DNA of 64,000 nucleotides, from the sequence record MK295203. One strand, 5' to 3'. The translations under genes and the position numbers were made by a program. The notes beneath the pieces were generated by a model. The model did no database searches. It had not been told where the DNA came from and saw nothing but the letters and a program-made list of their open reading frames with translations. This stretch comes from Escherichia phage vB_EcoM_005. Positions 351 to 61,920 of the stretch are shown one piece after another (the stretch's first letter is position 1; every line of letters begins with the position of its first letter).

Positions 351-391
351 GTTTACAGCAGGCAGGCCACGTGATACTATAGACCTATCAA
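351..391 (+). promoter_or_regulatory. early sigma70-type promoter cassette (PeSL-like)
   Basis: GTTTAC 351-356, 18-nt spacer, TGATACTAT 372-380, conserved AGACCTATCAA; same module recurs at least 12 times. Confidence 0.55.
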
Positions 392-409
392 AACATGAGG
401 AGATTAAAA

Positions 410-676
410 ATGAACAAATTAAACTTTATCCGTACTACACTTTCTAACCTTGACAAAGACATCAAAGCTCTGGTAGAAAAATTCGGTACCAATCCTAATG
501 GTAATGCAGTTAATGCATTGGTTAAGAAATACGAAGCTCTGGCTTATGAAACTGATTTCTGGTGGAACGGTGAATACTCTACCCATACCAAAGACAAATC
601 TGGTAACTGGCTGAAAATCCAAGAAAATCGTATTGACTTCCGTGATATCATCAACCGTCGTGTCAAAGCAGCGTAA
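410..676 (+). CDS. hypothetical small protein (88 aa)
   Basis: ATG 410 follows GAGGAG at 397-402; ORF track starts at alternative ATG 395; no recognisable motif. Confidence 0.5.
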   Translation: MNKLNFIRTTLSNLDKDIKALVEKFGTNPNGNAVNALVKKYEALAYETDFWWNGEYSTHTKDKSGNWLKIQENRIDFRDIINRRVKAA

Positions 677-34729: not shown

Positions 34730-35422
<693 letters not shown>

Positions 35423-35428
35423 AAAGTT

Positions 35429-35468
35429 GTTTACAAGGTCTATAGGCATGATACTATAGACCTATCAA
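35429..35468 (+). promoter_or_regulatory. early promoter cassette (PeSL-like)
   Basis: GTTTAC, spacer AAGGTCTATAGGCA, TGATACTATAGACCTATCAA; spacer AGGTCTATAG pairs with CTATAGACCT. Confidence 0.6.
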
Positions 35469-35494
35469 AACAAACTAACCAAACGGAAATCAAA

Positions 35495-35719
35495 ATGAAA
35501 ACTTATCAAGAATTTATTACCGAAGCTAAAAGACATGAAGATGAACTGCCAATTGTTACAAAAACCTTTGATGGCACACTGGCTGATTTTAAAAAAGTCC
35601 CTAGTGATAAGCTTGCTAAATTGACTGGCTCTATCAATGAAAAAGGTGGCAAGGTCACGTTTTCTGCTGGCGGCATAGCCAATCTTAAAAAACTTTTGAA
35701 AGCCGCTGGCGCTGAATAA
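35495..35719 (+). CDS. internal protein with capsid-targeting leader (ipI position)
   Basis: Starts MKTYQEFITEA; 74 aa; located after 57B where T4 has ipI. Confidence 0.7.
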   Translation: MKTYQEFITEAKRHEDELPIVTKTFDGTLADFKKVPSDKLAKLTGSINEKGGKVTFSAGGIANLKKLLKAAGAE

Positions 35720-35995: not shown

Positions 35996-36038
35996 GTTTA
36001 CAACGGGCTCTAGTGGTGATACTATAGCCCTATCAAAA
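35996..36038 (+). promoter_or_regulatory. early promoter cassette (PeSL-like)
   Basis: GTTTAC...TGATACTATAGCCCTATCAAAACAA followed by GGAGAATAAAATG leader. Confidence 0.55.
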
Positions 36039-36061
36039 CAAATGAGTGATTGGAGAATAAA

Positions 36062-36247
36062 ATGAAACGTTGCGAATTAATTAGAAATGTTACTGCACTG
36101 GCCGCCGTTACTGCTTTTGGCTTTAGTATGTTTGCAGGATTCATGCTCGATATGCTTTCAACTTCCGAGAATATAATCTCTTTAGTAGTGGCATTTTTAA
36201 TTGGTTCAATCTCTTTTGTTATGGATAAAATCTCTAAAGGTGAGTAA
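36062..36247 (+). CDS. small hydrophobic (membrane) protein
   Basis: ATG after GGAG leader; two hydrophobic stretches; track start 36050 is TTG. Confidence 0.5.
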   Translation: MKRCELIRNVTALAAVTAFGFSMFAGFMLDMLSTSENIISLVVAFLIGSISFVMDKISKGE

Positions 36248-36914: not shown

Positions 36915-37043
36915 GAATTATGTGATATTATTACTCTATCATTAATACCCTCTATTACCAAAGGTTCTTCCCTCAAAGAACCTTTCATAATAGACAAGGT
37001 CTATTAATCAAACTTACTTTACTTAATTTTATTTGAGGTGTTT

Positions 37044-37315: not shown

Positions 37316-37389
37316 GGCCCTGTAGCTCAATGGTTAGCAGCAGTCCCCTCATAAGGGAAAGGTTACCGGTTCAAATCCGGTCTGGGTCA
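37316..37389 (+). tRNA. tRNA, anticodon CAU (Ile or Met)
   Basis: Hand-folded cloverleaf: acceptor GGCCCTG/CTGGGTC, anticodon loop CTCATAA, T-arm ACCGG-TTCAAAT-CCGGT; no encoded CCA. Confidence 0.6.
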
Positions 37390-37397
37390 TTAACTAC

Positions 37398-37472
37398 GTC
37401 CCGCTGGTGTAATGGATAGCATACGATCCTTCTAAGTTTGCGGTCCTGGTTCGATCCCAGGGCGGGATACCA
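37398..37472 (+). tRNA. tRNA-Arg (anticodon UCU)
   Basis: Acceptor GTCCCGC/GCGGGAT, D-loop AATGGATA, anticodon loop CTTCTAA, T-arm CCTGG-TTCGATC-CCAGG, discriminator A plus CCA. Confidence 0.75.
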
Positions 37473-38850: not shown

Positions 38851-38880
38851 TAGGCCCTTCCGAAAGGTTGGGCCTTTTTT
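38851..38880 (+). terminator. rho-independent terminator (second copy)
   Basis: AGGCCCTTCCGAAAGGTTGGGCCTTTTTT identical to 37708-37738. Confidence 0.7.
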
Positions 38881-38903: not shown

Positions 38904-38945
38904 GTTTACACCTCCTTTAAACATGATACTATAGACCTATCAAAA
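38904..38945 (+). promoter_or_regulatory. early promoter cassette (PeSL-like)
   Basis: GTTTAC...TGATACTATAGACCTATCAAAACAACAGAGTGAAGGAG leader. Confidence 0.6.
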
Positions 38946-38967
38946 CAACAGAGTGAAGGAGAGTAAA

Positions 38968-39231
38968 ATGGATAATTATGGTGAATTGTTTAATTTCTTT
39001 ATGAAATGCGTTCCGGAAGAATTTGGTGCTACCGTTAACGATATTAAGGTTATCGGTCCTGAACATCCGGTATATGAAACGTATGCTGTAATGGGTAATG
39101 AAGACGGACAATGGTATACAATTAAGGTTGTGGTTAATATGTTCTCAGCTGAAGGTTATGCTAAATCGTCTACCAAAGTTTATCATGATAACGATTTTGA
39201 TGCGGAAGATTATTTCAATAATATGAAATAA
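38968..39231 (+). CDS. hypothetical protein (87 aa)
   Basis: ATG 9 nt after AAGGAG; track start 38953 is GTG. Confidence 0.55.
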   Translation: MDNYGELFNFFMKCVPEEFGATVNDIKVIGPEHPVYETYAVMGNEDGQWYTIKVVVNMFSAEGYAKSSTKVYHDNDFDAEDYFNNMK

Positions 39232-39235
39232 AAAT

Positions 39236-39266
39236 GTTTACAACCCTCAGAGGACAGGGTATAATG
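39236..39266 (+). promoter_or_regulatory. early promoter (GTTTAC / TATAAT)
   Basis: GTTTAC 39236-39241, 18-nt spacer, GGTATAAT. Confidence 0.5.
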
Positions 39267-39307
39267 TCCTCATGGATTATAAATCTTAACCAACTGAAGG
39301 AAATACT

Positions 39308-39901
39308 ATGAACACTTTAAAGAAAATCGTTGAATTCATCCGTTCTAAACTGGGTACTGCAATGGCTCAGAACCTGTCAATCGAAGACCAATACACCAAA
39401 GCTGCTTCTACCCTGATTGATAAAATCACTGAACTCCAGACTGCTCATGTTAAGTCTGTGAATGAAGAAAAACGTATTCGTGCGTTGGCTAATGAAAAAG
39501 ACCAGCTCGCTGCTTCTAAAGAACGTGAAATTCGTAAACTGATTGCCGAAGGCGCTGATGTCCAGGTACATGCTAAACTTGGCCTCCTTTATCGTCGTAC
39601 AGCTACTCAGCTTCGTAAGAAAGCTGATGATTATATCGAAATGCGTAATGAAATTAAACTGAAGGTTAAGGAACTTGATGACTCTCGTCAGGAACTGGCT
39701 GTTAAGCTCGAGTACATCCGTGAAACTCGTAATATGGCTGCCCTTGGTATTGCTACTGCTGATGATGTTGTTGAAATTGCTGCACTGACCAAGATTGATA
39801 TCGAAGACACCCTGATGCGTGTAGAAACGTTTAAAGGCCCACAAGTTGGAATGGATACGACTTCTGCTGATATCGAAGACTACATTAATTCACTTAAGTA
39901 A
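39308..39901 (+). CDS. coiled-coil protein, 197 aa
   Basis: Long heptad-like helical sequence; function unknown. Confidence 0.5.
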
Positions 39902-42954: not shown

Positions 42955-43818
42955 ATGATGTTAGTTATTGGTTCTCGTGCACTGCACCACGCTGGTCTGA
43001 TTGAAAGTAAGCATATCGAAAATTCTGATTGGGATTTCATTGCCGACCAAGGTTCATGGAACCATTTTAAAGCTCGGATGTTTGGTGCCCATGTTTCTGT
43101 GGATAATCCTGATGTCCAGGCTTTTAAATGCATGTACAACGGTAAAGAAACCTATTTTGAAGCATATATCGTTCGTGCTCTGACTAACGTACGAGAAATT
43201 ACCGGCGAGCTTCAAGACGAAGATTTCACCTCAAGTTATCGTCTCCTGAAATATGCCGAAAATCATATTAAAAAGGACCGTCTTACAGGTTTCTATTGGG
43301 CTACGCCTGATATCTGTCTGGCTATCAAAACCTCTCATCGTTTCCTGAAGAATAATCCTTTCTTCTTGAAAACTATGTCCCACATCAAATACCTTCGTAA
43401 TAAAGGTACCACCTTGAATGAAGAACTCCAGGAAATTATGCTGCAACGTCAAAAAGAAACGTTGAGCTATTCCCATCCTAAATTGGATGTAAACAAATCA
43501 TCGTTCTTTAATGATACCATGGAGAAGTTCGAGGCTTTGCCTGAAGCTATTAAATTGGCTGGTGTGTATGAAGAAACCTGTGTCCTGGCACTAGAACGTT
43601 CACAGGTTCCTAATGACTTCAATATTTCACCATCATTAAGTTTCTATATGGCTCTTGAGAAAGTGTGTACCTCAATCACTTCAGGTTGGTTCCGCACTTA
43701 TGCATGGGAAAACTACCAAGCTGTGGTTAATATGTACAAGACTTTAGGTGAAAGTGACTACATTGAACGATTTAAACGTAATCAACATCTTATTAAACCT
43801 TTCAAAAAGGCTGAGTAA
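42955..43818 (+). CDS. hypothetical protein (287 aa), possible nucleotidyltransferase-like N-terminus
   Basis: Internal ATGATG start after GAGGAAAA; N-terminal LVIGSRALHH...SDWDF loosely resembles a GS...DxD motif. Confidence 0.5.
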   Translation: MMLVIGSRALHHAGLIESKHIENSDWDFIADQGSWNHFKARMFGAHVSVDNPDVQAFKCMYNGKETYFEAYIVRALTNVREITGELQDEDFTSSYRLLKYAENHIKKDRLTGFYWATPDICLAIKTSHRFLKNNPFFLKTMSHIKYLRNKGTTLNEELQEIMLQRQKETLSYSHPKLDVNKSSFFNDTMEKFEALPEAIKLAGVYEETCVLALERSQVPNDFNISPSLSFYMALEKVCTSITSGWFRTYAWENYQAVVNMYKTLGESDYIERFKRNQHLIKPFKKAE

Positions 43819-44468
43819 TGGGACGGCCTCTAAAAGATTTAACCGGACAGGTTATAAATGGTATTAAATTTTTATCGGTGGCCTATAAAGCCACCGGATC
43901 GCCAACCAAGTGGCTTTTATTGTGCCATTGCGGTGAAGAATTCGTTACCACCGCCTCTAGAATAAAAACAGGAAAAACAAAATCATGCGGCTGTGAAAGA
44001 TACCATTATTCCTTTATAAAGAATAGGTATACATATTCCTCATATTCTGCTATGATTGCTAGATGTACAGACCCTAAACATAAAGCCTATCCCGCCTACG
44101 GTGGTAATGGTATAGTTGTTTGTGACGAGTGGCTTCCTAAAGGAAAGAAAGGGTATTTAAAATTTGTCGAGGATATGGGCGAGAGACCTAAAGGGACTTC
44201 AATAAATCGAATAGGTTCTGTTAAAAGGTATAGCAAAGAAACTTGTGAGTGGGCTCCATTTACAATGCAATCATTTGACCAAAGAACGCGTCATGATTCA
44301 CCGGGTCCTATTTCAGGAGTTGTATATAGAAAAGATAGAAATAAATGGGTAGCTTCTATAACAGTAGAAGGCGAAGCCATAGGGCTATATTATGGTGATA
44401 CTGAAAGCGAAGCGATAGAGGCTAGAAAACAAGCTGAACTTAAATATTTTGGAAGATTTAAGTCATAA
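43818..44468 (+). CDS. AP2-domain DNA-binding protein (homing-endonuclease-like)
   Basis: C-terminal ...GVVYRKDRNKWVASITVEGEAIGLYYGDTESEAIEARKQAELKYFG AP2-type motif; Cys-rich N-terminus. Confidence 0.55.
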   Translation: MGRPLKDLTGQVINGIKFLSVAYKATGSPTKWLLLCHCGEEFVTTASRIKTGKTKSCGCERYHYSFIKNRYTYSSYSAMIARCTDPKHKAYPAYGGNGIVVCDEWLPKGKKGYLKFVEDMGERPKGTSINRIGSVKRYSKETCEWAPFTMQSFDQRTRHDSPGPISGVVYRKDRNKWVASITVEGEAIGLYYGDTESEAIEARKQAELKYFGRFKS

Positions 44469-44473
44469 AAGTT

Positions 44474-44514
44474 GTTTACAAGGTCTATAGGTGTGATACT
44501 ATAGACCTATCAAA
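44474..44514 (+). promoter_or_regulatory. early promoter cassette (PeSL-like)
   Basis: Near-identical to the 35429 cassette. Confidence 0.6.
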
Positions 44515-44539
44515 ACAACAGAGTGAAATGGAGAATAAA

Positions 44540-44752
44540 ATGAAACTTTCTAACCAAGCAATCAACATGTTAAACGAAGTTCGTGCAGCTGGTGCTAAAT
44601 GCCTGATGGTTGACACTCGTGATGGAGACCTTCGTCAAGCATTTGGTGAATTGAAATCTGCTGACCTGGTTAAATGTTCAGTTGGTATTGGTAACGCACT
44701 TCGTGTATCCTTATCTCCTAAAGGTAAAATGTACTTTTTCAACAAAAAGTAA
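44540..44752 (+). CDS. hypothetical protein (70 aa)
   Basis: ATG after GGAGAATAAA leader; alternative ATG 44528. Confidence 0.5.
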   Translation: MKLSNQAINMLNEVRAAGAKCLMVDTRDGDLRQAFGELKSADLVKCSVGIGNALRVSLSPKGKMYFFNKK

Positions 44753-46649: not shown

Positions 46650-47081
46650 ATGGATATTTTTGATATGTTACGTCAAGACGAAGGTCTTGATTTAAATCTT
46701 TATAAAGACACTGAAGGTTATTGGACTATTGGTATTGGCCAATTGATTACTAAGAACCCTTCTAAAGATGTTGCTCGTGCTGAACTTGATAAGCTTATGG
46801 GTCGAGTTTGTAATGGTCGTATTACTATGGCTGAAGCTGAACAACTCTTTAACCGATCGGTTGAAAATGCTCGTAGAGCTATTCTGCGTAATCCTAAATT
46901 GAAACCTGTTTATGATGTACTGGACGAAGTTCGTCGTTGTGCTTTAATTAACATGGTCTTCCAAATGGGTGAAGCAGGCGTAGCAGGGTTCACTAACTCT
47001 TTACGTATGCTCCAACAGAAACGTTGGAACGATGCGGCAGTTAACCTGGTTTATCGCAGAGAATGTAATTCCTGCATCTAA
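46650..47081 (+). CDS. e: lysozyme (endolysin) e, C-terminally truncated
   Basis: [33 protein letters not shown]... matches T4 lysozyme to ...AAVNL then diverges and stops (143 aa versus 164). Confidence 0.85.
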
Positions 47082-47094
47082 AGAACTTTTGGCG

Positions 47095-47430
47095 ATGTTT
47101 GAATCTGAAGAGTTCACTGAAGAACTGAATGAGAACCTGACCCAGGCCACTCCTCAGGTTATTCGCGTTCGTAACGCTCTGCAGACAGGCATGCAGGCCC
47201 GCGTATCTAAGACTATGAAGCTGGCATTCACCACTTCTAAAAATGAAGACTATGGCGACGGTATTGCAATGAACACTGGACAGTATTATGTCGAGTGGAA
47301 TGGTGAAACCGGTACGGCTAAGATTCGTCAGACACGTGCAGCGGGTGGTAAAATGTTAGACCTTAAACTGAACGTTAAAGAGAAAGACGTCGCGGCTTTG
47401 TTCAAGAATTGGATGAAAACCTACAAATAA
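47095..47430 (+). CDS. hypothetical protein (111 aa) ending in a stray MKTYK leader fragment
   Basis: ORF replaces the 3' end of e; last codons ATGAAAACCTACAAATAA look like the start of an internal-protein gene. Confidence 0.4.
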   Translation: MFESEEFTEELNENLTQATPQVIRVRNALQTGMQARVSKTMKLAFTTSKNEDYGDGIAMNTGQYYVEWNGETGTAKIRQTRAAGGKMLDLKLNVKEKDVAALFKNWMKTYK

Positions 47431-47462
47431 GTTTACATCTCCTAGAATTATGATAGTATATC
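47431..47462 (+). promoter_or_regulatory. early promoter cassette (variant)
   Basis: GTTTACATCTCCTAGAATTATGATAGTAT upstream of ipIII. Confidence 0.5.
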
Positions 47463-47512
47463 TACAGTTACTTGAACAGACCAATTAAAATATTTACCTT
47501 TAAGGAACCAGT

Positions 47513-48109
47513 ATGAAAACGTATAAAGAATTTATCACCGAAGCTTCTGTAGGAAAGGTCCAAGGCATTAATAAAGATGAGTGGACTTACCGAGGAAACG
47601 GCGTTGACAAAATAGGAAACGGCTTTGACGCTAAAACAGCTCCTATTGAACGGTATTTAGCTACAAAGGCTTCCGATTTTAAAGCTTTCGCTTGGGAAGG
47701 ACTTCGCTGGCGTAACGACCTAAATATTGAAGCTGATGGGCTTAAATTTGGCCATATCCAAGATGTTGTTGCTAGTAACTTGGATGCAGCTTTTATTAAA
47801 GCCGACGGTGACCTTCGTCGCTGGAATTTAAAACTGTTCTCTAAACAGAAAGGTCCGGTATTTGTACCTAAAGCAGGTAAATGGACTATTGATAATAAAT
47901 TGGCTAAAGCGGTTAACTTCGCTGGTCTTGAATTTGCCAAGCACAAATCAGCATGGAAAGGTCTTGATACAATGGCTTTCCGTAAAGAATTTGCTGATGT
48001 TATGACTAAAGCCGGCTTTAAGGCAGAACTAGATACCTCTAAAGGTACGTTTAAAGACGCTAATATTCAGTACGCTTACGCCGTTGCTAATGCAGCCCGT
48101 GGTAATTAA
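47513..48109 (+). CDS. ipIII: internal protein III
   Basis: MKTYKEFITEASVGKVQGINKDEWTYRGNGVDKIGNGFD... matches T4 IPIII as recalled; 198 aa. Confidence 0.8.
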   Translation: MKTYKEFITEASVGKVQGINKDEWTYRGNGVDKIGNGFDAKTAPIERYLATKASDFKAFAWEGLRWRNDLNIEADGLKFGHIQDVVASNLDAAFIKADGDLRRWNLKLFSKQKGPVFVPKAGKWTIDNKLAKAVNFAGLEFAKHKSAWKGLDTMAFRKEFADVMTKAGFKAELDTSKGTFKDANIQYAYAVANAARGN

Positions 48110-48137
48110 TAAAGCGATTTACCTTTAAAGGAAACAT

Positions 48138-48440
48138 ATGAAAACCTATCAAGAATTTATCACTGAAGCCCGCGTAACCGCAGGTAAATTAGAAGCCGCT
48201 GTAAATAAAAAGGCCCATTCATTTCATGATTTGTCAGATAAAGACCGTAAGAAACTTGTAAGCCTTTATATTGACAAAGAGCGTATTCTCGCTCTCCCGG
48301 GCGCTAATGAAGGTAAACAGGCCAAGCCTTTGAATTCTGTCGAAAAGAAAATTGATAACTTTGCTTCTAAGTTTGGTATGTCTATGGATGACCTTCAGCA
48401 AGCGGCTACCGAAGCAGCTAAAGCAATTAAAGGTAAATAA
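48138..48440 (+). CDS. ipII: internal protein II
   Basis: MKTYQEFITEARVTAGKLEAAVNKKAHSFHDL...; 100 aa; T4 order e-ipIII-ipII-denV. Confidence 0.8.
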   Translation: MKTYQEFITEARVTAGKLEAAVNKKAHSFHDLSDKDRKKLVSLYIDKERILALPGANEGKQAKPLNSVEKKIDNFASKFGMSMDDLQQAATEAAKAIKGK

Positions 48441-48443
48441 CAG

Positions 48444-48472
48444 TTTACTTTTACAATAGCTGTGATATAGTG
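48444..48472 (+). promoter_or_regulatory. early promoter (variant) upstream of denV
   Basis: GTTTAC 48444-48449, spacer, TGTGATATAGT. Confidence 0.4.
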
Positions 48473-48500
48473 TTCTCACACAAACATGGAGAACACTAAA

Positions 48501-48917
48501 ATGACTCGTATCAACCTTACCTTAGTATCTGAATTGGCTGACCAACACTTAATGGCTGAATATCGCGAATTACCACGTGTTTTCGGTGCAGTTCGTAAGC
48601 ATGTTGCTAATGGTAAACGTGTTCGTGATTTTAAAATTAGCTCTACTTTTATCCTTGGTACAGGCCATGTTACATTCTTTTACGATAAGCTTGAGTTCTT
48701 ACGTAAACGCCAAATCGAGCTTATAGCCGAATGTTTAAAACGTGGTTTTAATATCAAGGACACTACGGTCCAGGACATTAGTGATATTCCTCAGGAATTC
48801 CGTGGTGACTATACTCCACACGAAGCTTCTATTGCTATATCTCAGGCCCGTTTGGACGAAAAAATTGCACAACGCCCTACCTGGTACAAACATTATGGTA
48901 AGGCTATTTACGCTTAA
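48501..48917 (+). CDS. denV: endonuclease V (pyrimidine-dimer DNA glycosylase) DenV
   Basis: [35 protein letters not shown]... near-identical to T4 DenV; ORF track starts at upstream ATG 48486. Confidence 0.9.
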
Positions 48918-50753: not shown

Positions 50754-50796
50754 GTTTACATCTCCTGTAGACGTGATACTATAAACCTATCAACTA
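50754..50796 (+). promoter_or_regulatory. early promoter cassette with SD-sequestering inverted repeat
   Basis: GTTTAC, spacer ATCTCCTGTAG, TGATACTATAAACCTATCAA, then CTACAGGAGAT (perfect 11-bp complement holding the regB SD). Confidence 0.65.
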
Positions 50797-50810
50797 CAGG
50801 AGATTACAAA

Positions 50811-51269
50811 ATGTCAGAAATTAATTCAGAAGTATTCATCCGCCGCAACAAATTACGTCGTCAGTTCGAAACCGAATTCCGTGAACTGAATGCGTCCATC
50901 AAAAAAGCCGCCATTAAGAGCGGAGTCCCAGCCTTCTTTATTAAGTACTCTAATCACTTGTTGGACCGTGCTATCCAACGTGAAATCGACGAAAAATACG
51001 TTTTTGCTTTATTCAAGCAACTCCATAACCATGTTAAAGAAATCCACGAATTCTTAATCCAGGAACCTCTGCCTGATGTAGAATCCGAAATTGTCCCTGG
51101 TAAAGTGTATCGTCCATTGCGTCTCGAAATTACCGATAAAACCTTATGGCTAGGTATGACAGTAGACCGTAAACATCCTGATAAAGGATATTCCCTTAAA
51201 TGCCGTATGGCATTTGTTAACTCTAAACGTTTAGAAGGTAAAACCAGCACGAAAGTAATCTATCTTTAA
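50811..51269 (+). CDS. regB: RegB endoribonuclease
   Basis: MSEINSEVFIRRNKLRRQFETEFRE...YSNHLLDRAIQREIDEKYVF... matches T4 RegB. Confidence 0.85.
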   Translation: MSEINSEVFIRRNKLRRQFETEFRELNASIKKAAIKSGVPAFFIKYSNHLLDRAIQREIDEKYVFALFKQLHNHVKEIHEFLIQEPLPDVESEIVPGKVYRPLRLEITDKTLWLGMTVDRKHPDKGYSLKCRMAFVNSKRLEGKTSTKVIYL

Positions 51270-52918: not shown

Positions 52919-53491
52919 ATGGCCCAACTTTATTTTCACTACGCAGCAATGAATTCCGGGAAGACCGCTTCATTGCTAACAGCCGCTCATAACTACAAAG
53001 AACGTGGTATGGGCGTACTCCTTTTAAAGCCTGCGATAGACAATAGAGAATCAAGCCATAGCATTTCGTCTCGTATAGGGATTAGCCAAGAAGCTAATGC
53101 AGTGACTCCGGATATGGACCTATACGAGTTCTATCGTTGGGCTGAATCTCAAAAAGATATCCACTGTGTGTTTGTGGATGAAGCGCAGTTCTTAGAACCT
53201 GTACAGATAAAACAACTGGCAAAGATAGTAGACAATTATAATGTTCCAGTTATGTGCTATGGACTAAGAACTGATTTTCAGGGTAAACTGTTTCCTGGCT
53301 CTGCTGAATTACTCGCTACAGCAGATAAACTCGTTGAGTACAAAGGTGTGTGCCATTGCGGCCGTAAAGCTACTATGACGGCTCGTATCCAAGATGGTAT
53401 CGCAATTAAGGACGGAGCCCAAGTTTCTATAGGTGGCAACGATTCTTACGTGTCATTGTGCAGGAAGCACTGGATAGAAATAACGAGTTGA
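52919..53491 (+). CDS. tk: thymidine kinase
   Basis: MAQLYFHYAAMNSGKTASLLTAAHNYKERGM...VFVDEAQFL...CHCGRKATMTAR... matches T4 Tk. Confidence 0.9.
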   Translation: MAQLYFHYAAMNSGKTASLLTAAHNYKERGMGVLLLKPAIDNRESSHSISSRIGISQEANAVTPDMDLYEFYRWAESQKDIHCVFVDEAQFLEPVQIKQLAKIVDNYNVPVMCYGLRTDFQGKLFPGSAELLATADKLVEYKGVCHCGRKATMTARIQDGIAIKDGAQVSIGGNDSYVSLCRKHWIEITS

Positions 53492-54436: not shown

Positions 54437-54441
54437 TCAAA

Positions 54442-54466
54442 GGTCCCACTTCGGTGGGACCTTTTT
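54442..54466 (+). terminator. rho-independent terminator
   Basis: GGTCCCAC-TTCG-GTGGGACC followed by TTTTT. Confidence 0.7.
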
Positions 54467-54475
54467 CGTTTAGGT

Positions 54476-54517
54476 GTTTACATCCTCTAGGAACATGATA
54501 CTATAGACCTATCAACT
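54476..54517 (+). promoter_or_regulatory. early promoter cassette (PeSL-like)
   Basis: GTTTACATCCTCTAGGAACATGATACTATAGACCTATCAACTAATGAGGAG. Confidence 0.6.
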
Positions 54518-54532
54518 AATGAGGAGAACAGT

Positions 54533-54769
54533 ATGAAACTTACAAGTACTACGGTTTCATTAGAATATGAAATCAACGGTCGTATCCTTGAGATTAAGAT
54601 ATTCGACGACCGAAGTATCTTCGCTGATTATCGAGGATACAGAATTCGTCTAGAAAAGGACGAGCTCAAGGAACCGTGGCTCCTTAAAGACACATTAAAG
54701 GGTTGTGGGTGTAAACTGAACACCACCCAGGCCCAAGAATTAATTTCTACCATCAACAAATACTGGTGA
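54533..54769 (+). CDS. hypothetical protein (78 aa)
   Basis: ATG after GAGGAG. Confidence 0.55.
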   Translation: MKLTSTTVSLEYEINGRILEIKIFDDRSIFADYRGYRIRLEKDELKEPWLLKDTLKGCGCKLNTTQAQELISTINKYW

Positions 54770-57115: not shown

Positions 57116-57118
57116 TAA

Positions 57119-57138
57119 AAGGCCTTCGGGCCTTTTTT
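57119..57138 (+). terminator. rho-independent terminator
   Basis: GGCC-TTCG-GGCC followed by TTTTTT. Confidence 0.65.
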
Positions 57139-57157
57139 GGGTTTAGTGCAAAAAAGA

Positions 57158-57200
57158 GTTTACACCCTCGTAGAGCATGTTATTATGGACCTATCAAATC
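57158..57200 (+). promoter_or_regulatory. early promoter cassette (variant)
   Basis: GTTTACACCCTCGTAGAGCATGTTATTATGGACCTATCAAATC. Confidence 0.5.
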
Positions 57201-57223
57201 TACTGAGTGAAATGGAGAATATA

Positions 57224-58204
57224 ATGTTAACTATCAAAATCAACAAAGGTATCTATCGCGGTAATGAAATCTCTGGTACGTTCATGAGTTCAGGTAAAAC
57301 CTGGTTCCCTAATAAAATTCATGAATCCGAAGCTCACCTCGGTGACGGCAAGGTATTCGTACAGATTGATGGTGTTGAACGTGGTGTATGGGTGTTCAAA
57401 TGTGACGTTGAAACGGAAGGTGCTGAAGCTCCTGTAGTGGTTACTGAATCCGCTGAAGAAATGAAGCATCGCATCAACAAACGTTTTAAAGTAATGAACA
57501 TGATGACTAACGGAATCATCGATGGTAAAATTCGTTCCCTTATCATCTCTGGTGCCGCAGGTATTGGTAAAACGTATTCTTTGGATAAAGCATTACAAAA
57601 TGCCCACGAAAATGAAACTATCGAATATAAATCAATCAACGGAAAGATTAGTGGAATCGGTCTTTACGAGCAGCTTTGGAATAACCGCGGCCCTAATAGT
57701 GTTCTTCTTATCGATGATGTTGATGTATTCTCTGATATGGATATCCTGAACCTGTTAAAAGCAGCATTGGATACCGGTGAAAAACGTAAGGTGTGCTGGA
57801 GCACTTCAAGTTCTTACCTCGATGATAAAAATATCGATAAAGAATTCGAATACGAAGGCACCATCGTGTTCATCACCAACGTTGATATTGACCGTGAATT
57901 AGAGCGTGGAACTAAACTTGCTCCACACCTCCAGGCTTTAGTATCTCGTTCAGTTTACTTAGACCTCGGAGTTCACTCGAACGAAGAGATTATGGTTCGT
58001 GTTGAAGACGTTATCCTGTCCACTGATATGATGCAAAATCGAGGTCTGACTGATGCTGAGACTTATCAAGCTTTAGCATGGATGAAGGCTAATGTATCTC
58101 GTCTTCGTAACGTATCATTACGTACAGCTCTTTATCTGGCAGACTTCATTGCCACCGATAAAAATGACTGGAACGAAATCGCTGAAGTTACACTTCTGAA
58201 ATAA
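57224..58204 (+). CDS. AAA+-type ATPase (326 aa)
   Basis: Walker A GAAGIGKT, Walker B VLLIDDVD; ATG after GGAG; ORF track extends upstream from TTG 57137. Confidence 0.65.
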   Translation: MLTIKINKGIYRGNEISGTFMSSGKTWFPNKIHESEAHLGDGKVFVQIDGVERGVWVFKCDVETEGAEAPVVVTESAEEMKHRINKRFKVMNMMTNGIIDGKIRSLIISGAAGIGKTYSLDKALQNAHENETIEYKSINGKISGIGLYEQLWNNRGPNSVLLIDDVDVFSDMDILNLLKAALDTGEKRKVCWSTSSSYLDDKNIDKEFEYEGTIVFITNVDIDRELERGTKLAPHLQALVSRSVYLDLGVHSNEEIMVRVEDVILSTDMMQNRGLTDAETYQALAWMKANVSRLRNVSLRTALYLADFIATDKNDWNEIAEVTLLK

Positions 58205-58557: not shown

Positions 58558-58600
58558 TGTTTACATCTCCAGTAGAAATGATACTATAGACCTATCAACT
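58558..58600 (+). promoter_or_regulatory. early promoter cassette with SD-sequestering inverted repeat
   Basis: GTTTAC, spacer ATCTCCAGTAG, TGATACTATAGACCTATCAA, then CTACTGGAGG. Confidence 0.6.
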
Positions 58601-58613
58601 ACTGGAGGTTATC

Positions 58614-59039
58614 ATGAACGCTAAAGATATTTTTTCACTGATTAATTTCAACAACGGTAATTTCAAATCTGAAAAACAAAGCAAGTTCTTTAACGACGTT
58701 GCTTGTGGTAATGAGATTACCGTATCTGGAGGAGAGATTTACAAAAGCCGTTGGAACTGGATTGTTATCATCGATTCAGTTGGTATTGTAGAGCTCTATA
58801 AAAATACTAACAAAAAACGTACTCTTCACTGGAGTCGTGAAACCAATCAATCTTATCAAGCTGAACGTAACAAACGTTTAATGCCTACTGAATCTGACCT
58901 GGCAAATGTTAAATCTGATATCGCTTATTTCGATAATCTGATTGCCGAGGAACAAGCGGTTATTGATAAGTTTGACGAAATCAAAGCTTGTAAAGAGATT
59001 CCTGAATTCATGGAGCGTTTAAAGACGGTTCTCGCATAA
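58614..59039 (+). CDS. hypothetical protein (141 aa)
   Basis: ATG after GGAGG. Confidence 0.55.
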   Translation: MNAKDIFSLINFNNGNFKSEKQSKFFNDVACGNEITVSGGEIYKSRWNWIVIIDSVGIVELYKNTNKKRTLHWSRETNQSYQAERNKRLMPTESDLANVKSDIAYFDNLIAEEQAVIDKFDEIKACKEIPEFMERLKTVLA

Positions 59040-60950: not shown

Positions 60951-60985
60951 GTTTACATCCAAGGATGGATGGAGTATAATCCTTT
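60951..60985 (+). promoter_or_regulatory. early promoter (GTTTAC / GAGTATAAT)
   Basis: GTTTAC 60951-60956, spacer, TATAAT about 60975. Confidence 0.45.
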
Positions 60986-61008
60986 TATCAACTACTGAGG
61001 AGAATATC

Positions 61009-61920
61009 ATGACTCGTACTGAATACATCAATGCCTTTACTACGTATATCACTGCTGCCACCCCTCCATTAACCCCATACGAGGTAATAGTTTCTAATAT
61101 CAATAAATGGGTAGACCAAATTGATGAAGCACTATCTGGTTGTTTCAAAGATGAAATCGAAAAGATTGCGAGTCGTTTGTTTATTTCTGATATCACGGAA
61201 ACTTTTAAAGGTTCTCGTTTGCTTTCACGCCTGGTCAATAAGGACATCCTTTCAGAGTTTGGCAAAGAGAAACATCCAGGTTCCAGCCATGTTGTTAGCT
61301 ATCAATGGTTTGGTGACGTTTTAAAAAGCTATGTCAAAATTAAAGGTGCCGATCCTAGTGGCCTATTTCCACAACGTTGGGCTGGTGAATTTAAGGCTAA
61401 CTCCGCATTAATTCTAAAAGCAGCAACCAAAACCTTTGTAAAGGGTGATTGTCGTACTATCCACCCTATGGCTAATTGCATGATTAAAACAAACAGCTAT
61501 AAAGGGAAGGTACTTATTTCTATTATTTGGTCGCCTAGTCGGAAACCTAAAGAAGTTGAAGTTTCGAAATACCACGATATTTCCTACAATACCCTGAATA
61601 TGGTAGAACAGGCTTTAGCTTTGATGGATACAGTAGAGAAATATGAGATTCAAGAAATCAAACACCACTTAGGCTGGAAAGGATATGAAGTTTTAGTAAC
61701 AGTTCGCGAAATCAAATGCCCTGTTCCAAAAACCGACGCTGAAATTTATCAAGAAAAATGTGAGGAAATTGTGAACACTGATAAAGAGCCTGCAACCTTA
61801 GAAGACCTGATTGATGAGCTGAATAGCCCGAGGCTATTGGCCTGTGCACAAATTACTAAATCCAAGTTACCAGAAGTCGTTGCGGACCGTCTTGAACAGG
61901 CTCTGGAGCTGCTGAAATGA
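61009..61920 (+). CDS. hypothetical protein (303 aa)
   Basis: ATG after GAGGAG; track starts at 60949. Confidence 0.55.
   Translation: MTRTEYINAFTTYITAATPPLTPYEVIVSNINKWVDQIDEALSGCFKDEIEKIASRLFISDITETFKGSRLLSRLVNKDILSEFGKEKHPGSSHVVSYQWFGDVLKSYVKIKGADPSGLFPQRWAGEFKANSALILKAATKTFVKGDCRTIHPMANCMIKTNSYKGKVLISIIWSPSRKPKEVEVSKYHDISYNTLNMVEQALALMDTVEKYEIQEIKHHLGWKGYEVLVTVREIKCPVPKTDAEIYQEKCEEIVNTDKEPATLEDLIDELNSPRLLACAQITKSKLPEVVADRLEQALELLK

Follow-up and report, generated by a model that had tools for sequence, protein, structure and literature searches.

Why is one early promoter repeated 13 times in a T4-like phage, and why do copies of it carry an inverted repeat across the promoter itself? 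Both questions are raised by positions 35,429 to 35,468 of a 64,000-nt stretch of DNA from Escherichia phage vB_EcoM_005 (MK295203), which was analyzed as a whole and is referred to here as the window. The element located at these positions is a promoter module with GTTTAC as its -35 hexamer that begins 7 nt past the stop codon of gene 57B and heads the first internal-protein (IP) gene. We consider it moderately probable that the cassettes of this family combine three layers, namely an early promoter, a recombination point and an insulation against incoming transcription for which either a terminator or a hairpin is responsible. A wider statement is more tentative and falls slightly short of an even chance: the spacer of T4-like early promoters may encode RNA structure, every early cassette may be insulated by a terminator or a spacer/discriminator hairpin, and promoter and ribosome-binding site may co-evolve as a shufflable unit.

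The 20-mer TGATACTATAGACCTATCAA at the core of the element is matched nine times in the window with zero to three mismatches, always on the plus strand (at 372, 35449, 36017, 38924, 44494, 50774, 54496, 57178 and 58579), as compared to 0.01 expected matches. GTTTAC sits 14-15 nt 5' of the core TG in all nine cases, and the GTTTAC-N-TG spacing pattern has eight matches versus 0.05 expected. A first-pass annotation of the window had described this fixed module correctly but had allowed a distance of 14-18 nt, which has to be narrowed; of the start positions it gave for the copies, 58558 has to be corrected to 58559. A listing of all GTTTAC sequences in the window yielded four further promoters with other -10 regions (39236, 47431, 48443 and 60951). 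These had been put down as variants and are indeed true GTTTAC-N17-(TG)-TAnnnT promoters, but their -10 and the part behind it differ, which brings the total to 13 cassettes where at least 12 had been proposed. All are encoded on the early-gene strand directly 5' of a Shine-Dalgarno (SD) sequence and an ATG; a -10-like hexamer follows GTTTAC at a distance of 16-18 bp in every copy, and is preceded by TG in 11 of the 13. Twelve reside within 35-61 kb, in the early region from 57B to nrdC, and the hyperplastic location claimed for the family holds for these but not for copy 351, which is situated between late genes 24 and 23. A conservation beyond that of ordinary promoters had also been claimed and is borne out by 63 distinct JS98-type cassettes with an identical 20-mer, the exact sequence being present in about 10-13 copies per JS98-type genome in IMG/VR. 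When a 52-nt cassette was compared with the phage collection, only about 36 records matched at 95% or more, with T4, T6, RB69 and relatives at 80-90%; none of the records listed there carries a promoter annotation at the cassette match. An Rfam scan of the window returned two tRNAs only and no match at any cassette.

The anatomy of the module points to an early promoter, as initially proposed. An A-rich tract (AAAAGTT) lies 5' of GTTTAC, followed by a 17-bp spacer, an extended -10 of the form TGA-TACTAT (TGATACTAT) and the discriminator AGACCT. The predicted start, taken as the position 7 nt after the -10, is the A of ATCAA, and the discriminator and start region (AGACCT/ATCAA) are conserved. 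A short, unstructured leader of about 20-47 nt then leads to a GGAG-type SD and the ATG of mostly small early genes: the cassettes head IP genes, e.6/e.8, ipIII, denV, regB, nrdC.x and a seg-like endonuclease island. The window, five other clades and T4 all have the regB promoter at the equivalent position. Judged from these elements, the cassette represents the T4-type early promoter as it occurs in the JS98 group (Dhakavirus), and both the consensus and the orthology to the T4 regB promoter, a documented early promoter, make initiation at each copy appear likely.

The first-pass annotation overlooked an inverted repeat inside the promoter of copies that lack a terminator. In the focal copy, AGGTCTATAG in the spacer and CTATAGACCT, which spans the 3' half of the -10 and everything up to position -1, form a perfect 10-bp inverted repeat, and in cassette 3 a GGG in the spacer matches a CCC in the core, a compensatory change as compared to the focal copy. 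Spacer complementarity was evaluated for 80 distinct cassettes of the JS98 group; as downstream sequence we counted the -10 (3' half), the leader and the rest up to the ATG. The best spacer-downstream duplexes average -10.3 kcal/mol versus -4.8 kcal/mol for shuffled spacers, with p<0.05 in 59% and p<0.01 in 36% of the cassettes. Three spacer classes can be distinguished. Class A spacers pair with the discriminator and track its variants (GGT/ACC, GGG/CCC, AGG/CCT, ACAGGG/CCCTGT, TAGGG/CCCTA), class B spacers pair with the SD region, and class C spacers end in CTTTAAACA and have no downstream pairing. The bases beside GGAG in class B covary between paralogous and orthologous cassettes, the pairs being ATCTCCTGTAG/CTACAGGAGAT (regB, denV), ATCTCCATTAG/CTAATGGAGAT, ATCTCCAGTAG/CTACTGGAGGT (58559), TTCTCCTCATG/CATGAGGAGAA versus TTCTCCTCTGG/CCAGAGGAGAA, and TGTTCCTC/GAGGAACA. 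When rows picked for pairing were aligned, 98.8% of the class B cells were paired, five of 11 pairs had changed on both sides and none of 500 shuffles was as good, slid registers reaching only 30-52%; the corresponding class A alignment is 92.5% paired and contains two compensatory pairs, and all its one-sided changes are G·U. Folding is most pronounced at 35429, 50754, 48443, 58559 and 44474 (z-scores of -5.7, -5.4, -3.7, -3.6 and -3.4, respectively), and the segments from -35 to ATG reach -15 to -19 kcal/mol in strong cases as compared to 0 to -1.4 kcal/mol for the cassettes' own transcripts. Since the predicted +1 is located downstream of the 5' arm, only RNA begun further upstream would contain this arm. 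Class A and B hairpins were also considered as intrinsic terminators and rejected, because no U-tract follows them on either strand.

The mismatches within the stems bear on the nature of the folded species. The 34 distinct best stems, including those from T4 and other clades, contain 13 internal G·T, no A·C and five other mismatches, in a strand-symmetric count that scores G·T and A·C equally and in which at least seven of the 13 G·T are independent by our reckoning. Neither a symmetric cruciform nor a protein-bound dyad would be expected to favor G·T on one strand, and the presence of G·T without A·C points to the sense strand as the species that folds, i.e. to RNA or, less probably, to the non-template DNA strand.

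Hairpins and terminators are distributed in a nearly exclusive manner. In a set of 93 cassette-plus-flank combinations, a terminator is located upstream of four of 50 hairpin cassettes, one of the four being a doubtful call inside coding sequence, and of 26 of 43 non-hairpin cassettes (Fisher 8e-8). Counted by ortholog group, the figures are one of 14 and 11 of 17, respectively (P=0.002). In the window, only the copies at 38904, 54476 and 57158 are preceded by a terminator hairpin (z-scores of -1.8, -0.1 and +1.3), and the three terminator sequences differ, such that the notion of cassettes often paired with identical terminators has to be abandoned. Copy 351 has no co-directional upstream gene and no hairpin (z +1.8), and six of the other nine copies have z-scores of -1.9 or below. 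The near-exclusion links both hairpin classes to incoming transcription, although a DNA-level rule that allows each cassette a single inverted repeat would be in keeping with it, too.

Masking of the SD was assessed by comparing the opening energy of the SD hexamer in read-through RNA and in the cassette's own RNA. The cost of opening rises by 9.6 kcal/mol for denV (48443), 7.6 kcal/mol for regB (50754) and 11.8 kcal/mol for the cassette at 58559, and is modest or weak at 35996, 60951 and 38904; over all 13 copies it is not significant (p=0.13), and it is very large at three. The mean unpaired probability for positions -14 to +3 shows a small effect only (0.54 versus 0.44), because the AU-rich spacer and the AUG dilute this measure.

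Conservation at denV and regB across phages is the strongest evidence for the role proposed for the embedded hairpin. The difference in opening energy exceeds 3 kcal/mol in 31 of 35 distinct T4-like denV upstream regions (median 8.1), and the masking occurs in two geometries with unrelated arm sequences. The window denV follows the second, in which AGTGTTCTC, consisting of the -10 end and the discriminator, pairs with GAGAACACT over the SD. The four exceptions stem from phages of about 350 kb that contain an intrinsic terminator inside the promoter (GGGTTGAC-TTCG-GTCAGCCC-TTTTT) with the -35 within the stem, and read-through is presumably stopped by this built-in terminator instead. The fused terminator-promoter of these phages (loci L113, L114, L115 and L120) is located about 60-25 nt 5' of denV; it continues behind the T-tract, which forms the spacer, with GC-TATAAT, has TTGAC in the terminator stem as its -35 and constitutes an alternative stem-loop-in-promoter design. 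For regB, the spacer can pair with the discriminator, the SD or both in each of the five clades sampled and in T4, as exemplified by TTTCTCCTCTTTA/TAAAGAGGAGAAA and, for T4, by TTTTCCTCTTGACTG/CAGTTAAGAGGAGAA. In T4 (AF158101), minus-strand early promoters near ~57990 and ~20612, the latter 5' of dmd (loci L069 and L068), are near-perfect palindromes across the -10 (AGTTGACAAGATTA/TAATCTTGTCAACT and GACAAGACTA/TAGTCTTGTC) that differ from each other by compensatory changes.

How could such a cassette operate? Host sigma-70 RNA polymerase would start immediate-early transcripts at each copy, and the near-identical copies may at the same time serve as portable homology for phage recombination, by which adjacent genes would be gained, lost, replaced and reordered. 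Incoming transcription would be handled by either of two mutually exclusive devices, an upstream terminator as in the classical layout of the promoter-early stem-loop (PeSL) elements of T4-type phages, or a 5' hairpin arm embedded in the promoter. RNA started upstream would hold both arms and fold, whereas RNA started at the cassette would lack the 5' arm and stay open. In class B (regB 50754, denV 48443 and nrdC.8 58559) the 3' arm is the SD, and the read-through RNA would thus be untranslatable and its GGAG shielded from RegB; such genes would be expressed only as a pulse from their own early promoter. In class A (35429, 35996 and 44474) it is the discriminator that serves as the 3' arm, and the SD would stay unmasked; these hairpins may act in decay or processing, or may originate from quasi-palindrome correction. 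We infer the start sites, the read-through, the block of 30S binding by folding and the protection of GGAG from RegB, the last two by reference to known SD-sequestering and RegB-structure systems. RNA secondary structure does protect GGAG from RegB, and the GGAG of T4 denV is RegB-resistant in vivo (PMC3014915, PMC1702504). RegB is itself the product of an early gene, and its production 'must be tightly regulated' (PMC3014915).

A number of points weigh against this explanation. The SD is not masked in class A (0.0 kcal/mol at the focal copy 35429 and -2.0 kcal/mol at 44474), and SD masking is therefore not a universal function of the hairpins. Orthologues of nrdC.8 alternate between class A and class B, and the minimum free energy of whole segments has no bias for sense over antisense (15 versus 23 groups, Wilcoxon p=0.70). 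The copy at 47431 has neither terminator nor hairpin; it heads ipIII, which encodes a virion protein, and translation from longer transcripts may be needed here. The picking of rows for both alignments (A1 and A2) biases the pairing percentages upward and leaves the compensatory changes unaffected, which could in turn be mimicked by T4-type template-switch correction of quasi-palindromes. Finally, the +1 is an assumed position, read-through is deduced only from co-orientation and the absence of terminators, and the null model for the breakpoints treated below drew random and not intergenic positions.

Among the other explanations, the one that survives best is unlikely in our judgement. It takes the cassettes as plain PeSL/T4 early-promoter repeats that serve solely as strong promoters and recombination substrates, and holds that their complementarity arose neutrally when quasi-palindromes templated mutations or gene conversion. 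T4 rII is an established case of template-switch mutation at such sites; the palindromic CTATAG of the core recurs in the stems of class A, which leave the SD unmasked, breakpoints cluster at the cassettes and a chimeric cassette exists (L046, see below), all of which is in line with such an origin. A neutral mutational bias, however, predicts neither the masked SD in 31 of 35 denV upstream regions, achieved by two geometries of unrelated sequence, nor the spacer complementarity of regB in each of five clades and T4, nor the scarcity of hairpins where a terminator precedes the promoter, nor G·T mismatches without A·C.

A hairpin or cruciform at the DNA level is slightly less likely still. It could act as a recombination hotspot, e.g. 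as a target of endonuclease VII or another junction enzyme, or modulate promoter melting or shut-off. Such a structure would be in keeping with one inverted repeat per cassette, be it an upstream terminator or an embedded one, with arms that flank the -10 element, with the interchange of classes A and B at one gene and with the recombination junctions at the cassettes; a stem-loop-binding recombination factor has been raised by the authors of the PeSL concept (PMC2839356). The ratio of 13 G·T to no A·C speaks for selection on one strand and not for a symmetric cruciform, the interarm interval of about 23 nt in class B, closed only by an inner 5-bp helix, disfavors cruciform extrusion, and at denV and in several regB clades it is the SD in particular that forms the 3' arm.

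To the possibility that the hairpin is primarily a stability or processing element of read-through RNA we attach a somewhat smaller probability again. It might be a 3' decay barrier, guide RNase E to the AUCAAAAC tract or shield GGAG, translational control being secondary. The hairpin is positioned 14-25 nt past the upstream stop codon as would be expected for a protective stem-loop, it takes the place of a terminator hairpin, and the RegB-resistant GGAG of T4 denV and protection from RegB by RNA structure (PMC3014915, PMC1702504) would fit as well. Class A would be covered along with class B. Nothing points specifically to this possibility, which can coexist with insulation by SD masking; the covariation of SD-flanking bases fits SD occlusion better than a generic barrier. 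An operator at which a dimeric phage or host regulator shuts off early promoters would make use of a dyad overlapping the -10 and would address the mechanistically unexplained shut-off of T4 early promoters (PMC2988021, PMC3014915), but was rejected in view of arms that vary in sequence, position and spacing from copy to copy, covary pairwise and share no common half-site, and we regard it as very improbable.

The recombination layer of our explanation was evaluated by alignment of the window to JS98, UGJNEcP3 and WG01, from which 40 distinct edges of indels or replacements were gathered. Twelve lie within 30 nt of a cassette as compared to 2.1 expected for random positions, a number that none of 5000 randomizations reached. 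At 35420-35425, 39219-39242, 47430-47460 and 57143-57196, one window cassette aligns to both sides of a relative's extra DNA, which means that the extra DNA is flanked by two cassette copies in the relative; JS98 and WG01, for example, have two copies around about 258 extra nt at cassette 11. A 435-nt insertion is located exactly at cassette 5 in relatives, and the window-specific open reading frame (ORF) at 43818-44468 stops at the 5' edge of cassette 6 (44474). JS98 and WG01 carry replacements of the IP-type genes that lie between the cassettes at 35429 and 35996. In the window (47050-48169) ipIII and the neighboring ORF are present in swapped order as compared to JS98 (L050, 34005-35152), with the junction on cassette 47431, and the JS98 cassette L046 is a chimera that joins a spacer and a leader from different classes. 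As a pattern of breakpoints, the role of the cassettes in recombination that the first-pass annotation had put forward is thus supported.

The same annotation had equated the cassettes with PeSLs, and here a distinction is required. PeSLs are defined by a stem-loop terminator just 5' of an AT-rich tract, an early promoter, SD and ATG, cluster in hyperplastic regions and are associated with indels between close relatives (PMC2839356; PMC4122927). Promoter and terminator activity and the formation of mini-circles through recombination of neighboring copies are further hallmarks of PeSLs (PMC2839356). The cassettes resemble the PeSLs of RB49/phi1, T4/PST and KVP40/nt-1 in being reiterated, conserved early promoters with an AT-rich tract, SD and ATG (PMC2839356, PMC4122927), in their concentration between small ORFs of the hyperplastic early region and in their occurrence at junctions of insertions, deletions and replacements, with duplicated copies around extra DNA. 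The full arrangement of terminator and promoter is realized at three copies (38904, 54476 and 57158). Ten of the 13, including the focal copy, lack the defining upstream stem-loop and therefore fall outside the PeSL family, and unlike PeSLs the terminator-less copies contain the embedded inverted repeat, whose 5' arm belongs to the spacer or discriminator, whose 3' arm falls on the discriminator or SD and which lacks a U-tract. PeSL-like sequences have earlier been mentioned for JS98 at the g43 locus. In the account of Repoila et al. (1994) that is given in PMC2839356, IP loci of T-even phages combine a T4 early promoter with weak AT-rich stem-loops; the copies at 35429 and 35996 appear to be comparable in that they reside at the 57B-IP-trna.4 locus and flank replaced IP-type genes, whereas the cassette family of the window reaches far past the IP loci.

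Two precedents come close to the embedded hairpin. The T4 genes e, soc, 49 and I-TevI are controlled by SD-sequestering helices with a nested late promoter. By analogy, the SD or AUG in both systems would pair with a 5' arm found only in upstream-started transcripts, and the promoter between the arms would yield an open mRNA, the stems being phylogenetically conserved and the +1 of the cassettes a predicted one. In the T4 genes the nested promoter is of the late type (TATAAATA), and the hairpin keeps a late gene from being translated early. The window copies, by contrast, nest the sigma-70 early promoter of an early gene, use their own spacer or discriminator as the 5' arm, reside in a multi-copy mobile cassette and would have the reverse effect, i.e. 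confinement to an immediate-early pulse. Sigma-54 promoters contain a CT-rich anti-SD motif that pairs with the downstream SD and silences expression from read-through, which is experimentally supported (Levy et al., bioRxiv 10.1101/086108). The cassettes are similar to these insulators in that a pyrimidine-rich motif inside the promoter (here TCTCC or CCTC) pairs with the downstream SD. The sigma-54 motifs comprise 3-5 nt, are located at most 25 nt from the SD in bacterial promoters and have no reported covariation, whereas the stems described here extend over 9-15 bp, are located about 40 nt upstream in phage sigma-70 early promoters and co-evolve with SD-flanking bases. We found no description of early promoters nested in ribosome-binding-site hairpins in the searchable full-text literature, older T4 papers possibly excepted. 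The embedded hairpin is therefore probably an undescribed variant feature on a real and largely known kind of element.

A repeated promoter alone would be ordinary, and PeSL-like shuffling extends a published concept to one further phage group; it is the embedded dyad that adds value. Should the explanation be correct, promoter spacers, usually deemed free sequence, would be constrained by the RNA structure of other promoters' transcripts, and a self-insulating mobile cassette would explain how moves between contexts occur without misexpression. Expression of regB and denV would be limited to an immediate-early pulse by the hairpin together with RegB cleavage of the exposed GGAG. Post-transcriptional control would also contribute to how sharply early proteins, the RegB nuclease among them, are shut off, and the design could partly account for the shut-off of early expression as well as for the extra conservation seen in alignments of T4 early promoters; the shut-down of T4 early promoters is 'not completely understood' (PMC2988021, PMC3014915). 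For annotators of T4-like phages and designers of synthetic operons, a simple rule would follow, i.e. to look for, or to provide, either a terminator or a promoter-embedded anti-SD arm.

Table 1. Promoter cassettes of the window and terminator-like hairpins preceding them. z, fold z-score; MFE, minimum free energy; ddG, rise in the opening energy of the SD hexamer in read-through RNA over own RNA (kcal/mol).
Feature	Coordinates	Strand	Promoter elements and start codon	Inverted-repeat arms or hairpin	Folding
Cassette 1	351..412	+	-35 351-356; core 372-391; ATG 410	no embedded hairpin	z +1.8
Cassette 2 (focal)	35429..35497	+	-35 35429-35434; core 35449-35468; ATG 35495	class A, 35436-35445 AGGTCTATAG, 35454-35463 CTATAGACCT	MFE -16.8; z -5.7; ddG 0.0
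Cassette 3	35996..36064	+	core variant GCCC 36017-36036; ATG 36062	class A, 36005-36013 GGGCTCTAG, 36022-36030 CTATAGCCC	z -1.9
Hairpin upstream of cassette 4	38853..38880	+		GGCCC...GGGCC, then T6 run	
Cassette 4	38904..38970	+	core 38924-38943; ATG 38968 (e.8 homologue)	weak spacer-SD pairing, CTCCTT 38912-38917 with AAGGAG 38956-38961	z -1.8; ddG +1.2
Cassette 5 (variant)	39236..39310	+	-35 39236-39241; -10 TATAAT 39260-39265; ATG 39308 (e.6 homologue)	GAGGAC 39250-39255 and GTCCTC 39266-39271, either side of -10	
Cassette 6	44474..44542	+	core 44494-44513; ATG 44540	class A, 44481-44490, 44499-44508	z -3.4; ddG -2.0
Cassette 7 (variant, ipIII)	47431..47515	+	TGATAGTAT 47451-47459; ATG 47513	no hairpin	z +1.9
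Cassette 8 (variant, denV)	48443..48503	+	-35 48443-48448; TGATATAGT 48463-48471; ATG 48501	48469-48477 AGTGTTCTC (-10 end/discriminator), 48489-48497 GAGAACACT (covers SD)	z -3.7; ddG +9.6
Cassette 9 (regB)	50754..50813	+	core 50774-50793; ATG 50811	class B, 50760-50770 ATCTCCTGTAG (spacer), 50794-50804 CTACAGGAGAT (SD)	z -5.4; ddG +7.6
Hairpin upstream of cassette 10	54439..54470	+		AAAGGTCCCAC-TTCG-GTGGGACCTTT and T-run	
Cassette 10	54476..54535	+	core 54496-54515; ATG 54533 (78-amino-acid ORF)	weak TCCTC/GAGGA pairing	z -0.1
Hairpin upstream of cassette 11	57117..57142	+		AAAAGGCC-TTCG-GGCCTTTT and T-run	
Cassette 11	57158..57226	+	core variant TGTTATTATGGACCTATCAA 57178-57197; ATG 57224	no hairpin	z +1.3
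Cassette 12 (nrdC.8 homologue)	58559..58616	+	core 58579-58598; ATG 58614	class B, 58565-58575 ATCTCCAGTAG, 58599-58609 CTACTGGAGGT	z -3.6; ddG +11.8
Cassette 13 (variant)	60951..61011	+	-35 60951-60956; TATAAT 60975-60980; ATG 61009	weak discriminator (CCTTT)-SD pairing	ddG +2.2

By megablast, the part of the window from 34 to 40 kb matches the JS98-type phages UGJNEcP3, QL01, WG01 and JS98 at 93-95% identity, and on the basis of these matches the source of the window is a JS98-type T4-like coliphage (genus Dhakavirus, Tevenvirinae). According to synteny with JS98, UGJNEcP3 and WG01, the window carries minus-strand late structural genes from gene 23/24 to gene 53 between 1 and 32 kb, and a plus-strand block of genes 4, 2, 3, 1, 57A and 57B followed by the early region between 32 and 64 kb. 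The early region is syntenic to the 57B-to-nrdC interval of T4 and contains IP genes, tRNAs, e.8, e.6, small ORFs, nudE, e, ipIII, denV, vs.x, regB, tk, rI, mobD.x and nrdC.x. The two tRNA genes, which are the sole Rfam matches, are located on the plus strand at 37316-37389 and 37398-37469 in the place of the T4 tRNA cluster; JS98 has three and UGJNEcP3 two tRNAs at this locus.

Cassette 1 heads a two-ORF island (351-1339) on the plus strand, opposite to the flanking late genes 24 and 23. The island consists of an 88-amino-acid ORF (410-676) and a GIY-YIG Seg-like ORF (680-1339) that matches Pfam SegE_GIY-YIG below the cutoff and is annotated as segD in phage IME08. A homing-endonuclease island thus appears to use the phage's own early-promoter cassette. 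The gene behind cassette 11 is a homologue of nrdC.10 with matches to AAA-type NTPases. The hairpin at 38853-38880 was read from the sequence by eye, as its imperfect stem escaped the terminator scan.

Two sites had been listed as decayed remnants of the cassette, and neither can be upheld. The one at 53491 agrees in 13 of 20 core positions and is devoid of a -35, and about 20 such chance matches are estimated for the window. The other, at 36990, is a 6-bp inverted repeat (ATAGAC-AAG-GTCTAT, 36990-37004) without -35 or -10. It reuses the arm motif of class A and is located 5' of the orf137 homologue, about 85 nt from the junction of a 472-nt indel as compared to JS98 and UGJNEcP3.

In alignments to the relatives, at least 19 window positions lack a segment that is found in one to three of JS98, UGJNEcP3 and WG01, the number varying with coverage (16370, 19202, 19463, 20590, 21017, 23299, 23984, 27471, 31004, 31230, 43520, 45142, 47049, 51927, 54138, 55752, 55869, 56613 and 59012). 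Of these 19 gaps, 15 measure exactly 99 nt and the others 97-106 nt; most are intragenic, and none touches a cassette. This uniformity suggests an artefact of assembly or joining, e.g. wrongly trimmed overlaps, and not biology.

Cassettes of class C that are preceded by a terminator (e.g. L040, L011 and L021) have the form GTTTAC-TTCTGCTTTAAACA-TGATACTAT, and many share the spacer T(C/A)TGCTTTAAACA. This shared spacer contains TAAACA, complementary to TGTTTA of the -35, and a MotA-box-like TGCTTTA, which was rejected as a MotA box because it ends 7 nt before the -10 where 11-13 nt are needed. A terminator together with the linker GGGTTTAGTG is repeated at several loci of relatives. The core variants TGATACTATAGCCCTATCAA, TGATACTATGGCCCTA and TGATACTATACATCTATCAAC precede regB and denV in other T4-like clades (L059-L063, L066-L067 and L090), with positions -5 to -3 varying and covarying with the spacer. 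It follows from the core variants in these clades that the TGATACTAT...CTATCAA frame predates the JS98 group.

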